Positions 18,701 through 21,700 of a stretch of DNA of 64,000 bases are shown here, in pieces (positions within the stretch are counted from its first letter, which is position 1; every line of letters starts with the position of its first letter). Origin of the DNA: an uncultured Nitrososphaerota archaeon (lineage in GTDB: Archaea > Thermoproteota > Nitrososphaeria > Nitrososphaerales > CADDZS01). Location: contig CAWCYI010000006.1 in NCBI GenBank assembly GCA_963799845.1, forward strand, positions 640,001-704,000, in the 5' to 3' direction. Position numbers: made by a program.

Positions 18701-21700
18701 GATTGTGGTCTCTGTGATCAGAACCGTGCCGGAAGTTAGTACAGTAGTTGTCTGCTCTTCAGTTTGATAAATTATTTCACTCATAACCGAGGTCGTAAAT
18801 GATGTCAGGGTCTGGGTCGCCGAACCGTTAGTCACGGTCGTGTAGATAGGAATCGTGAGCGTCGAATTCACGTTTGAAGTCGTTACCGTATAAGAAGTGA
18901 CTAGAGCTGTGCTGGTCCCGTTGATGAGCGTCGTTGTGAAATGATTGGTCTGCGTCACTGTTTCTGGTATCGTGGTCGTGGTGTTGACGTAGTTCGTAAT
19001 GTTTGTTTCGTCGGCATTTGTCGTCTGATTACCGGGTTGCGTCGTCACAGTGTAGGCTAGTGATGAAAAAGAGGACGAATTGAACGGGAATAAGGTCCTC
19101 TGGACTCCTATCACCCCAATTGAGATGGTCAAGATGATGGCTATGGAAATCACTGTGAGTATTGCTGATCTTTGCATGATCTACGCGCTTTTTTTATTTC
19201 GACGCAGGATTATGCTGGTTACCAGTTTTGTAAGTTGTATTTTTCTGGATCGGGACTAGTACCATTTTTCCAAGGTCCGTCTCATCTCAACCAGTGGGGT
19301 AGATTTTTCATCGTGTCAAAATTCGTTTGCCACGTAGTCTAAGATTGAAAACAATAACCATAAAGGCCTCCAATCGACTAGCAACGGCCGGAAGACCCCC
19401 TCATGACGTTAGCGAAAGAGTTTAGCATTTACGGCGAAGATTACGGTACCTCGGAATTCAAGTTTGGCGTTGCTACGCTCGGGAATACGCCCGATGCCAT
19501 TGACTCCCGTGGATATTTCCCTGATATGAGAAGCGCTCTGCTGAACTTGAGTTCTCGTTCAGCAAAGACCATGTCGTCAGGGAGAAACAATCAGATGTTG
19601 GTTGTTGGACCCACCGTAGCACAACACCTGGAGGCTCGGCGTGACATCGCGGAGCGGATGGTTTACCCCATGCGGAACGGCGAAATCGAGTCAGACGATG
19701 AGAGAGCTTGGTTAGTGGTCAAAGAAATTACGCGTTATGGTCTGCTGAGGCACGCACCAGAGAAGGCGGTCGCGCCCGAGTTCAACGGCTTCAAATGCGT
19801 CGGTGCACTGTCTGCGACTGCTCCACGCTACATGTACGACAGGCTCATAGGGATTCATCGGGAGATCAACAATGAAGAAAACAGAACGCTCACAAGGGTC
19901 CTGTCCATCATACCTCAGCCTCTTGCAGTAGCTATCTCTCAGAAACGACTAGCGTGCACGGTTCTGGAGGGAGGACACGGTAACACTCAGGTCGCTCCCA
20001 TAAGCAGCGGAGTGATTTTCAGTGCGTTAACGACGCTCAATAGAGGGGGCAGCGACTGCGACCTGATCGCGGCCGAGATATTGAAGGATGCAGGCTATTC
20101 TGATCTCGCCCGCGAACCCAAACTCGTCAAGGTATTCAAGGAATCCACGGGTCTTATCCCGAAGAACTTGGACAAGGTGATGCAAGAAAAGCAGACCACC
20201 TTGTTTGAGACAACGTTCAAGATTCCGTCGACAAAGATCTCCATAAGTTTGGGCAAGAACAGCTGGCAGCGTTTTTTGATGGGAGAGTATTTCTTCAATC
20301 CGAACCATGAGATCTTTGCCTCTTATTACAGGAGAGGATTCCCGAGGCCGGCGGATACGTACAGCGAGGGAAGAGCTGTTCTTGGAACCACCGATCTGGC
20401 TGATGTCATCATCCAGTCCGTCCAAAAATGCAGTTTTGAAATTCAACCCGCACTCTATCAGAACATAATTCTGTCTGGCGGTAATTTTGCATGGCAGGTG
20501 CCTCCGAACCTGACGAATTACGCTGTCAACTCGCCCGCCAAGCTCAAGAAGATGCTCGAAGAAAAGGGAATCGCCGGAAGCACGGTCGAGCTCACGAAAA
20601 ATCCGGTCTACAATGTGTGGCAGGGATGCATTGCTTACGGGCTCTACACTCCTGAAAATTATGAATGGGACTGGGATTCGCGGGAAGGGTGGCTACAGCT
20701 CGTTGCGAGTGCGGAGCTGGGCGAACAGAGCATCAGTGCCGAAATTTAGCGAATAAAAAAATAGAGATATCCTTGCGCTAAAGATTCTGCGGGATGTAAC
20801 CGGAAACGTCATCTGATGACGAGAACGCTCCCGAAGATGGAGCAACTATCCCAAGAGGAAGCGATGACGCTCCCATTCCTGCCGAGCGAACTATCGCTTC
20901 AGAGAGGAGATGGAGTAACCTCTCCTTTCCTCTGACGATAGTATTTGGCGTCTCGTTCATCTTTTTCCTGTATACGGCGAGTTATTCATGGTATGTGGGA
21001 GGGGGGGCTATGACTCAGAGCGTGCCCTGGCTGTATTCATCGGTTGCGATCTCGGGAGCAAGCCTCTTCGCGCTGAGCAATCTCTACATTTCCAGAAAAC
21101 TCCCGAAAATTACGTCTCTTCAAAGGTTTTTGCTATCATTCTTCGACCTAGGGGCATACTTTTGCCTTGTAGCGCTGGTCGTGTGGGGTTTGCTCTTTCC
21201 GATCCTGCGTCCGATCACCGATCCGAATTTTCAACTTTACTTACTTGGGCAAAAAAGTCTCGCGATGGATCTGTACACGGGGTTGGTCCTTTGCTCGATC
21301 GTGATCGTTTTCCGCATTGCGCTTCAGCTGCTAATTGCTCGTTCCAGCACAATCATGATTGTATCCCCTTCAAAGCCGCAATTCGGAAACACAATTCCGG
21401 TTAGAGATTCCTCGACGGATGGCGGTTCTCTTGAAAGCAAGATCTCATCAATCCACATGGAGATAACAAGGTTGAGAGAGGAAATCGCGTCGCTAAGTGC
21501 TCCGGGTACTGCTCTGAGGCTTACCAATCTGATGGGGGCGGTTGAATCGCCCGCGAATAACCGAGAATCGCCGGTTTCACTGGTAGACGAGATGGAAACG
21601 CTACCGTCAAGTCTAGCAGAAACCTTCGTGCAAAACCTTCCAACCAGAGATTCGGTTTCTCAAGAAACTGGAATGGAAGAAATGACAAACGGTGAGGTCA

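Follow-up and report, generated by a model that had tools for sequence, protein, structure and literature searches.

The window, a stretch of 64,000 nucleotides from an uncultured Nitrososphaerales archaeon, contains a crenactin gene at 19403..20749 (+ strand), identified by ORF calling and homology, which begins with ATG and encodes 448 aa, at the position given in the genome-wide survey's note. The phmmer search against the PDB described there was reproduced exactly, with a match to Pyrobaculum calidifontis crenactin 4cj7_A (E 8.8e-85, 288 bits, query residues 10-430 aligned to chain residues 14-427), versus E 7e-9 for the best eukaryotic actins. Over its full length, the protein is much more similar to 4cj7 than to eukaryotic actin or to proteins of the MreB type. 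Consistent with this, the NCBIfam crenactin model NF053560 matches at E 1.8e-142, with 417 of its 422 positions covered, the Pfam Actin model scores 46.3 bits (cut-off 27), and the MamK and syringactin models reach only 22-24 bits. In a profile search of the whole genome (4.60 Mb, 9 contigs, 86.7% complete), this ORF was the sole match to the Actin family. Upstream, a tRNA at 15680-15785 has no ARAGORN call.

The NF053560 score of 475 bits does not reach the equivalog cut-off of 630 bits and is among the lowest for full-length matches in our phylum and order samples, those of the order ranging from 467 to 500 bits. In the phylum sample, only 40 of the 139 genomes with a match exceed 630 bits. 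They belong mainly to three family codes, which we take to be Thermoproteales because their sampled members lack FtsZ and CdvB. The cut-off thus marks out that subgroup rather than the wider clade. The window protein is 38-40% identical to Thermoproteales-type crenactins and lies within a 99/97 clade inside the crenactin tree. When 20 crenactins were aligned, the actin-fold nucleotide-binding motifs that we checked (phosphate loops, catalytic Gln, and adenosine loop) proved invariant, at D13, G15, T16; Q172; E189, G191, G193; and S358, G359, G360. Q172 lies in a PQPLAVAI stretch that aligns to the Pyrobaculum protein and is presumably equivalent to the Q164 named in a passage of PMC5173319. 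Comparison with the same-genus copy in L042 gave a dN/dS of 0.03, at a dS of 1.98 that is close to saturation, and the gene is under purifying selection.

An arcadin-2-like gene adjoins crenactin

The neighbors of crenactin had been described as showing no arcadin similarity, which does not hold for the next ORF. This ORF, at 20995..22059 (+ strand; 354 aa, a mechanical ORF from GTG), starts 246 bases past the crenactin stop on the same strand and contains the C-terminal helix motif of arcadin-2. The motif, IPDSARDNPWASVLSRRQ, at 21757..21810 (+; residues 255-272), agrees with the arcadin-2 consensus LPsfLkDNPWveILsrRg. An equivalent gene lies directly after crenactin, on the same strand, in 10 related loci. 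Residues P256, A259, N262, P263, W264, L268, and R271 do not vary among 10 homologs, and the motif is also invariant in 23 homologs, the other parts of which diverge to 19-25% identity. Among the 40,654 ORFs of the genome, the pattern [DNE]NPW..[LIVM]L has a single match, which is the ORF adjoining crenactin; ten shuffles of all ORFs produced 3 matches in total.

In 54 of 93 loci, those of Thermoproteales among them, a classic arcadin-2-type protein is encoded beside crenactin in the same orientation. These proteins end in LP..L.DNPW..IL..R, give weak matches to NCBIfam Rkd2 (E 1e-5) and, in the non-Thermoproteales loci shown, start at most ~50 bases past crenactin. A profile that we built from these 54 syntenic proteins, in place of the NCBIfam arcadin-2 model, matches 20995..22059 at E 3.2e-5, which ranks second of the 40,654 ORFs and is the best single-domain match. 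The NCBIfam arcadin-2 model itself (NF053561, Rkd2) has no match in the whole genome at E up to 10, nor on the arcadin-2-like protein at E up to 0.01, and no other Pfam or NCBIfam family matches this protein. Its 26 relatives in the protein database contain no Pfam domain, and those for which the source gives a name are labeled hypothetical protein.

Both ends of the gene deserve comment. An in-frame upstream extension at 20893..20994 (+), the translation of which we compared with relatives P0200 and P0203, encodes the first putative membrane helix; it contains no ATG, GTG, or TTG, and ATC occupies the position of the relatives' start Met. The gene probably starts near 20893. At the other end, the last 27 codons and stop as assembled (21976..22059, +) are probably frameshifted and out of frame: relatives and the product of a second assembly, P0221, end in ...DS[CS]PTSQ, an ending that is found here in the +1 frame. 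The products of this second assembly split the gene in two. The gene could be decaying, or the defects at its start and end could be assembly indels.

An AlphaFold model of 20893-22056 (388 residues, i.e., the ORF numbering plus 34; pTM 0.44) displays four long helices at residues 2-35, 40-69, 75-105, and 123-156 (block-mean pLDDT 60-93), a linker at residues 204-285 in the same numbering with pLDDT below 50, and a motif region with a block-mean pLDDT of 56-73. On the basis of this low-pTM model and a crude hydropathy scan, we predict four membrane helices. The scan found 2-4 hydropathy segments per protein in 11 of 11 loci of the clade, versus any at all in 3 of 54 classic arcadin-2 proteins. 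The soluble arcadin-2 core is missing from this protein, with predicted membrane helices in its place, and we therefore file the protein as arcadin-2-like rather than as a member of arcadin-2. In the window's genus, the motif is internal rather than C-terminal and is followed by ~60-90 basic or disordered residues.

We modeled the complex of the helix with crenactin. The helix is placed in crenactin's hydrophobic groove with a median ipSAE of 0.85 over three runs, against 0.40 for the best control; of 157 solved complexes, 116 attain the ipSAE mark, as do 2 of 215 mismatched pairs. The runs have at least 74% of their contacts in common, with a partner pLDDT of at least 62. In the model, W264 and L268 pack against crenactin residues 177-183 and 400-421. 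Residue 177 aligns to actin 142 in the phmmer alignment versus the PDB, the region of actin's target-binding cleft. Since a like complex, 5ly3, has been solved, the high score speaks for resemblance and may be a product of memorization. Arcadin-2 is characterized by binding to this groove and by depolymerization; the prediction here is that the helix binds crenactin's groove.

FtsZ, SepF, and Cdv genes

The genome-wide survey's note had listed three nearly identical canonical FtsZ genes. Three there are, all outside the window, each with both the Tubulin and FtsZ_C Pfam domains and each above the TIGR00065 cut-off (348, 334, and 337 bits vs. 295), but their mutual identity is 81-91% and they are therefore close paralogs rather than near copies. 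The other genes on that list were recovered: two divergent tubulin-family genes (FtsZ-like, 91-93 bits), SepF (47 bits, cut-off 27), CdvC/Vps4 (NF041006, 522 bits, with MIT and Vps4_C domains), and two CdvB genes (NF041005, E 9e-48 and 6e-48). A CdvB (ESCRT-III) paralog lies in the window at 62984..63631 (− strand; 215 aa), with NF041005 E 9.1e-48 at 162 bits, below the 350-bit equivalog cut-off, and Pfam Snf7 at 20 bits. A genome-wide search for CdvB gave 4 matches (NF041005 E 1e-47 to 1e-55), one of which adjoins CdvC, and there are at least three CdvB in the genome. Profile matches delineate a CdvB/CdvB-like/CdvC operon at C4:64620-67868. All the CdvB and CdvC scores are below equivalog cut-offs that are tuned to Sulfolobales.

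As had been reported, CdvA was not detected, the best E being 0.296 for Pfam PF18822, with no match in the genome for NCBIfam NF041007. The caveat that 87% completeness undercuts this absence can be relaxed. At the profile level, where a very divergent PRC-barrel form could remain, all 13 family genomes, with completeness of 58-96%, lack CdvA, and its absence is therefore not an artifact of one incomplete genome. The same search detected CdvA in 7 of 13 members of the second family with crenactin and in one of two ammonia-oxidizer controls. Canonical FtsZ is present in 11 of the 12 other genomes of the window's family (a tally that includes the unpublished G102), or 12 of 13 with the window genome, and FtsZ-family and CdvB matches occur in all 13.

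Distribution of crenactin

Crenactin had been presented as a hallmark of Thermoproteales and Korarchaeia, an often repeated simplification that our counts correct. Of 401 genomes sampled across the phylum, 139 match NF053560, spanning 49 of 162 genera, and a contig scan found it in 247 species genomes, including Bathyarchaeia, Caldarchaeales, Culexarchaeia, Methanomethylicus, and Brockarchaeota. Within the order, crenactin was found in two amoA-less families only; searches of the remaining 18 family codes, and of 64 genomes from other orders of the class, yielded none. The description of the lineage as non-ammonia-oxidizing is borne out, with amoA in 0 of 13 genomes of the window's family, set against two positive controls, and likewise in 0 of 13 of the second crenactin-bearing family. 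Crenactin was found in only 6 of the 13 genomes of the window's family and is therefore either dispensable or often unassembled. Upstream of Korarchaeia-type crenactins we considered another candidate gene, cluster 14, which was not retained in the system because it contains an O6-methylguanine methyltransferase domain and has paralogs in the genome.

The claim that three systems coexist in this genome stands, but not its implication that this is special to the lineage. Outside the order we sampled 52 genomes that have crenactin, and 16 of them, belonging to 6 family codes, have canonical FtsZ and CdvB as well; a passage of PMC9723716 already states this complement of crenactin, FtsZ, and Cdv for Caldarchaeales and Culexarchaeia. 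The combination of FtsZ, ESCRT-III, and crenactin is real, yet ordinary for several TACK lineages and already known. We found no statement of crenactin in Nitrososphaerales-type lineages in the literature text searched; the supplementary tables of PMC9723716 and PMC10640624 may contain crenactin or arcadin calls.

Phylogeny of crenactin

We inferred a crenactin tree with a 56-row ingroup, rooted on 5 Thermoproteales-type rows, without eukaryotic or Asgard actins. Nitrososphaerales crenactins form one clade (99/97), the sister of which is Methanomethylicus (95/93), and the window's genus is nested among the crenactins of the other family (100/99). Two AU tests, both picked after the tree was seen, reject the grouping of Nitrososphaerales with Caldarchaeales crenactins as a clade (lnL difference 111.5, p 1.2e-8) and monophyly of the crenactins of the window's family (p 0.0013). 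With these rejections and the Methanomethylicus sister, simple vertical retention is without support, which weakens the suggestion in the genome-wide survey's note that the lineage preserves systems of the TACK ancestor. Methanomethylicus loci share the gene order VWA / crenactin / membrane arcadin-2-like. The VWA protein that goes with crenactin in the sister loci was not detectable in the window's genus. One database protein is a VWA protein fused to crenactin. As part of what we consider the best explanation, the crenactin module would be a distinct Nitrososphaerales/Methanomethylicus type of "arcade" cluster, with a history of transfer between lineages plus descent.

A candidate two-gene actin module

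We read the locus as a two-gene actin module, in which crenactin is held or capped at the membrane by its partner, and put the probability of this reading at roughly 0.72. Because of its full-length homology to the Pyrobaculum protein and its intact nucleotide-binding motifs, the product of 19403-20749 is expected to be an ATP-dependent, filament-forming archaeal actin, polymerization being predicted from sequence. Along its chain, the partner would have four membrane helices, then a cytoplasmic helix followed by a disordered linker, and last the short Trp-containing helix, which may bind crenactin's hydrophobic groove as in arcadin-2. The site of the arcadin-2 helix on crenactin is also that of the next subunit's D-loop. 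In the most likely mechanism, the partner holds or caps crenactin on the cytoplasmic side of the membrane, which would control where filaments grow or dissolve. Its service would be to cell shape or organization, not to division as a third machine. For this family, which lacks amoA and CdvA, FtsZ-SepF is the most likely basis of division, given that canonical FtsZ is present in 11 of 12 other genomes, SepF is present, and CdvA is found in 0 of 13. The CdvB-CdvB-CdvC operon may serve scission or other membrane remodeling.

An alternative is a downstream ORF unrelated to arcadin-2, with a DNPW stretch that resembles it by chance. That is very unlikely for a motif found in one of 40,654 ORFs, in the very gene adjoining crenactin, that stays invariant in both sets of homologs amid extensive divergence, has the position and strand of arcadin-2 in other lineages, and scores far above the best control in the complex model, even though the curated Rkd2 model and the Pfam and NCBIfam families do not match and arcadin-2 cannot be aligned with the remainder of the sequence. 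It is scarcely credible that the locus is a binning or assembly contaminant. The assembly is metagenome-style with an estimated contamination of 4.9%, but the locus sits inside a 1.75-Mb contig with two FtsZ genes and a CdvB, shows no GC break, and recurs in two other genomes of the same genus that have crenactin (90 and 74% identity) and the equivalent downstream gene; no att-like repeat was found to link the tRNA at 15680-15785 to the opposite flank.

A different history, in which three TACK-ancestral systems were kept together by vertical descent as a living relic, is unlikely. The breadth of crenactin in the phylum sample fits an old origin, a passage of PMC4571572 infers that the TACK ancestor had the three systems, the Nitrososphaerales crenactins form a single clade, and loss in ammonia oxidizers would fit the restriction to two amoA-less families if these branch early. 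Against this stand the rejected Caldarchaeales grouping, the Methanomethylicus sister with its shared gene order, the nesting of the window's genus inside the other family's crenactins with the rejected family monophyly, and the lack of crenactin in the 18 other family codes and 64 genomes of other orders. We also consider it very unlikely that crenactin is a third cytokinesis machine beside FtsZ and ESCRT-III. Crenactin-based division has been proposed for Thermoproteales, which lack FtsZ and ESCRT (passages of PMC7617429 and PMC7613921), but three canonical FtsZ are encoded here along with SepF, crenactin is found in 6 of 13 family genomes versus 13 for FtsZ-family and CdvB matches (12 for canonical FtsZ), and P. 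calidifontis crenactin is not at the division site according to a passage of PMC5840170.

We retain the membrane-associated two-gene module as our preferred reading. What appears to be new, judging from sequence, is an arcadin-2 crenactin-binding helix on a predicted membrane protein beside crenactin. The biology of archaeal actins has been built on a single hyperthermophile, Pyrobaculum, and the crenactin system is present in mesophile-type soil relatives of ammonia oxidizers. Since gene content points to FtsZ-SepF division in these relatives, the purpose of crenactin would be separable from division. A membrane-anchored carrier of the helix offers a concrete hypothesis for archaeal actin-membrane coupling. 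More tentatively, at somewhat less than even odds, the DNPW helix may be a portable crenactin-binding module, an archaeal counterpart of WH2-type motifs, grafted onto different proteins: most lineages would have it on the soluble core of arcadin-2, whereas Methanomethylicus, the window, and the second Nitrososphaerales family have it on a membrane domain of four helices, and the other genera of the window's family on a KaiC-like ATPase. On this reading, no direct tether of an archaeal actin to the membrane would have been described before the membrane form, which together with the VWA protein would represent a second arcade type, moving between mesophilic Thermoproteota. The presence of the helix on three protein bodies suggests modular actin regulators older than eukaryotes.

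Comparison with known systems

One close reference is the arcade cluster of P. calidifontis (4cj7, 5ly3, 5mw1; PMC5173319), which shares with the window a full-length actin-fold protein with nucleotide-binding motifs kept, a same-strand neighbor with a linker and a Trp-containing helix of one consensus, and, in the model, the same hydrophobic groove as predicted binding site. The window differs in that its crenactin is below the curated cut-off (475 vs. 630 bits), its partner replaces the soluble core of arcadin-2 with four predicted membrane helices, the Trp-containing helix lies inside the protein in the window's genus, and the genome's arcadin-4-like and arcadin-3-like genes are elsewhere in the genome. 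The NCBIfam arcadin-3 model reaches a best E of only 0.086 on this genome. Moreover, Thermoproteales are without FtsZ and ESCRT-III, whereas the window's host is a mesophile-type soil lineage with both.

Caldarchaeales (Aigarchaeota) and Culexarchaeia resemble the window genome in combining FtsZ, CdvB/CdvC, crenactin, and arcadin genes in one genome, as a passage of PMC9723716 indicates. The arCOG survey in the same passage gives no arcadins for Methanomethylicia, likewise an often repeated simplification, which is corrected by the Methanomethylicus loci, which have the membrane-anchored arcadin-2-like form. In contrast to the window, Caldarchaeales and Culexarchaeia have the soluble arcadin-2 type downstream of their crenactins, which are in another part of the tree.

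RodZ couples the MreB filament to the cell envelope. This pair, named in a passage of PMC12050087, and the WH2/thymosin beta-4 and ParR-ParM systems, compared in a passage of PMC5173319, have no sequence relation to the window proteins, and the likeness would be one of mechanism only: a short helix in a hydrophobic groove for WH2/thymosin beta-4 and ParR-ParM, and a membrane protein that links an actin-like filament to the envelope for RodZ-MreB.

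A Bona Fide Crenactin in a Nitrososphaerales Genome

The window covers C6:640001-704000 of a 4.60-Mb genome (9 contigs, completeness 86.7%, contamination 4.9%). Its crenactin gene at 19403-20749 (+) encodes 448 residues with PDB, Pfam, and NCBIfam matches, and is the sole Actin-family gene of the genome. It matches Pyrobaculum calidifontis crenactin (4cj7, 5ly3, and 5mw1) at E 8.8e-85 over residues 10-430, with eukaryotic actins next, at E 7e-9 only. Against the NCBIfam crenactin model it reaches 475 bits, short of the 630-bit equivalog cut-off, with almost the entire model covered; Pfam Actin gives 46 bits. 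The protein is 38-40% identical to 12 Thermoproteales-type crenactins, an alignment of 20 crenactins shows no variation in the actin-fold nucleotide-binding motifs, and dN/dS against a same-genus copy is 0.03, with dS near saturation. An 88%-identical database protein was already labelled "crenactin" by its source. These findings confirm the bona fide crenactin announced in the genome-wide survey's note.

Directly upstream, on the opposite strand, lie two Thr-rich proteins of 564 and 249 aa (16608-18302 and 18428-19177, both -). Both have a hydrophobic segment at the N terminus and are made up of degenerate 30-nt repeats. Neither matches a Pfam family, and they are probably heavily glycosylated surface proteins. 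An Rfam tRNA match at 15680-15785 (-; 106 nt, 45.7 bits), uncalled by ARAGORN, is probably an archaeal tRNA with an intron, and a search across the crenactin locus turned up no repeat of it.

Crenactin Is Widespread in the Phylum and Rare in the Class

Using the NCBIfam crenactin model at E up to 1e-20, we found crenactin in 139/401 genomes of a phylum sample (49/162 genera; only 40 of the 139 matches pass the curated cut-off), against 5/401 in a class sample (0/64 in other orders). It is therefore widespread in the phylum and rare in the class, and no hallmark of Thermoproteales and Korarchaeia alone, as had been noted. The order sample gave 18/401, subject genome included: 5 of the 12 other genomes of its own family (5/11 without the unpublished genome G102), 12/97 in a second family (f9), and none in the other 18 family codes. 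A one-genome-per-species scan yielded 247 genomes with a relative, among them by record title Bathyarchaeia, Caldarchaeales, Wolframiiraptor, Culexarchaeia, Methanomethylicus, Brockarchaeota, and Korarchaeia-type genomes. As far as our searches reach, crenactin is new for the order: literature passages retrieved for crenactin with Nitrososphaer*, Thaumarchaeota, or Aigarchaeota contain no report of it there.

The label of a non-ammonia-oxidizing lineage was upheld, with amoA absent from 13/13 genomes of the window's family and 13/13 of f9 and present in both ammonia-oxidizer controls. CdvA is absent from 13/13 genomes of the window's family (58-96% complete), and present in 7/13 f9 genomes and one of the two controls; without G102, the family tallies for amoA and CdvA are 0/12. 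Control G008 (family code f8) belongs to the order, is amoA-positive, and is 99% complete in a single contig; it has no match to the CdvA Pfam at E up to 0.001, and the other control is positive. A public record (L043), whose crenactin is identical to that of a same-genus genome, is described as "heterotrophic terrestrial Thaumarchaeota," non-ammonia-oxidizing, in passages of PMC10640624, a paper that nowhere mentions FtsZ, Cdv, cell division, or cytoskeleton.

FtsZ, ESCRT-III, and Crenactin Coexist, but Not as a Singular Relic

Profile matches recovered all the other genes listed by the note (FtsZ, SepF, tubulin-family, CdvB, and CdvC). Three FtsZ genes (C6:602851-603939, C6:493622-494725, and C4:780089-781177) exceed the cut-off of 295 bits, at 334-348, and share 81-91% identity pairwise; two divergent FtsZ-like genes, SepF, and a CdvC with MIT and Vps4_C domains are also present. 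Two CdvB genes had been reported, and there are four matches, one at window 62984-63631 (-) and one within an operon with CdvC. The reported pair consists of unlinked genes only and leaves out an operon of CdvB (236 aa), CdvB-like (298 aa), and CdvC (420 aa) at C4:64620-67868 (L137:4618-7868, -), with no PRC-barrel or CdvA gene between its members. CdvA was indeed undetectable in the genome (Pfam best E 0.296; no NCBIfam detection), and the gene content of the host lineage points to FtsZ-SepF division without CdvA. An 894-aa ORF at C6:1497545-1500226 (L020:988-3135; Tubulin_2 at 45 bits, Tubulin at 37 bits, and a weak match to the effector-associated domain EAD9) brings the tubulin-superfamily genes to six; genes like it occur in conflict systems, not division.

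Co-occurrence was scored in every crenactin-positive genome of the order sample (18), in the family's 7 crenactin-negative genomes, and in 52 phylum genomes, taken from 138 crenactin-positive ones at most five per family code before results were known and including 7 Thermoproteales-type controls. Outside the order, 17/52 crenactin-positive genomes have canonical FtsZ above the cut-off, and 16 of these 17, across 6 family codes, also have CdvB; 7/7 controls have neither. All three systems occur in 6/6 crenactin-positive genomes of the window's family and in only 2/12 of f9, plus one with a partial FtsZ. Passages of PMC9723716 already attribute FtsZ2, CdvBC, crenactin, and arcadins to Caldarchaeales and to Culexarchaeia. 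The coexistence stressed by the note is thus real, but it is neither distinctive nor a singular relic.

Pure descent of three ancestral systems surviving together is likewise unsupported by the crenactin tree. After a quick 101-row tree, 40 rows were left out (identical rows, L036 for its great length, and members of large clades that were thinned), and a careful IQ-TREE search was run on 61 rows and 431 columns (LG+C20), with five Thermoproteales-type rows as the root. All 11 Nitrososphaerales rows group in a single clade (UFBoot/SH-aLRT 99/97) with Methanomethylicus as sister (95/93), a relationship that common gene order supports independently. Korarchaeia-type crenactins come next (100/99), and those of Caldarchaeales and Bathyarchaeia lie elsewhere. 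Crenactins of the window's genus nest with f9 (100/99), away from the family's two other genera. In AU tests, both picked after the tree was known, monophyly of the family's five rows is rejected (lnL difference 44.2, p 0.0013), and so is a Nitrososphaerales + Caldarchaeales clade (lnL difference 111.5, p 1.2e-8), the latter test also forcing together two Caldarchaeales groups joined weakly in the free tree. Our reading is that the Nitrososphaerales/Methanomethylicus crenactin type arose once and was later transferred between lineages at least once.

The Neighbor of Crenactin Carries an Arcadin-2-Type Motif

The more novel part of the locus is the ORF next to crenactin. When ORFs of at least 70 residues within ~6 kb of crenactin were clustered over 93 loci, a ~230-residue protein was found beside crenactin on the same strand in 54, directly after it in the non-Thermoproteales loci shown. 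This set, Thermoproteales rows included, has weak NCBIfam arcadin-2 matches (E 1e-5) and ends in LPsfLkDNPWveILsrRg. According to passages of PMC5173319, arcadin-2 ends in a helix formed by its last 17 residues, which competes with the D-loop and depolymerizes filaments.

A profile of the 54 proteins matches the neighbor at 20995-22059 (+; 354 aa) with E 3.2e-5, second among the 40,654 ORFs of the genome, behind a biased coiled-coil protein that lacks the motif. The aligned part comprises a coiled-coil stretch and IPDSARDNPWASVLSRRQ at residues 255-272. This ORF holds the only occurrence of [DNE]NPW..[LIVM]L in the 40,654 ORFs, where ten shuffles of all ORFs gave three matches in total. Seven motif residues are invariant in 10 homologues and six of them also in 23, which at the far end are otherwise only 19-25% identical. 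None of its 26 database relatives has a Pfam domain, and those named by their source bear the label hypothetical protein. The earlier statement that the neighbors show no arcadin similarity therefore falls.

In an AlphaFold model of 20893-22056 (23-row alignment; mean pLDDT 64, pTM 0.44), a series of four long helices (block-mean pLDDT 60-93) is followed by a fifth at 179-202, a disordered linker, and the motif region. We also modelled crenactin (20-row alignment) with partner residues 238-285 (10-row alignment). The complex reached an ipSAE of 0.85 (median of three runs) versus 0.40 for the best control, a mark attained by 116/157 solved complexes and 2/215 mismatched pairs, with at least 74% of contacts common to runs and partner pLDDT of at least 62. 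W264 and L268 contact crenactin 177-183 and 400-421; residue 177 aligns with actin 142, a position within actin's target-binding cleft. Since a like complex (5ly3) is already solved, the model shows likeness and is no proof of binding by the window copy.

Away from crenactin, an 844-aa SMC/Rad50-like ATPase (C4:188843-191520; L136:2844-5521, -) has arcadin-4 as its best NCBIfam match (E 2.7e-33; its 115 bits fall far short of the 860 cut-off), and the 61-aa ORF immediately before it matches arcadin-3 faintly (E 0.008). Judged by these matches, the two may be an arcadin-3/4 pair.

The gene model needs care. Relatives of the partner carry an additional N-terminal helix; here its codons precede the ORF in frame, at 20893-20994, a stretch without ATG, GTG, or TTG. 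The last 27 codons of the ORF are probably out of frame relative to relatives, and in another assembly of the same organism a frameshift splits the gene into two database proteins. These irregularities may be assembly indel errors or early decay. An amidase-like ORF (24976-26592 and 25170-25694, both -) becomes Arg-rich and implausible half-way, the remainder of the amidase reading in another frame. Taken with both frame problems in 20893-22059, this points to assembly indels.

Crenactin Loci Vary among Relatives

Loci of f9 type, family g2/g3, and Methanomethylicus (L044-L054) encode a ~320-residue VWA-domain protein (Pfam VWA 47-55 bits) beside or near crenactin, e.g., L046:5040-5939 and L052:4876-5868 and 8550-9617, and up to ~4.5 kb upstream in L047. 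One database protein, P0021 (632 aa), is a VWA-crenactin fusion; no VWA partner was detectable in the window's genus. The family's two other genera have a KaiC-like ATPase of ~620 residues upstream of crenactin (154-174 bits; L045:3691-5571 and L048:3834-5687), with a DNPW or ENPW arcadin-2-type helix motif near the C terminus. In the second family, inteins interrupt crenactin genes near profile position 182-208 (L033/L039 in G206, L034/L040 in G090, and L037/L041 in G251; open frames of 806-992 aa), and in P0121 (955 aa) two Actin halves flank Intein_splicing (67 bits) and LAGLIDADG_3 (44 bits) matches.

Taken together, the locus is a crenactin module with a predicted membrane-anchored carrier of the arcadin-2 helix. 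Whereas classic arcadin-2-type proteins have a hydropathy segment in only 3/54 cases, the partner has a hydrophobic N-terminal part, with two to four such segments both in the window and in each of the 10 related loci (two of the same genus, five of f9 type, and three of Methanomethylicus). In arcadin-2 the helix is the C-terminal end, whereas in the window's genus a basic disordered tail lies behind it, so that the helix is not terminal.
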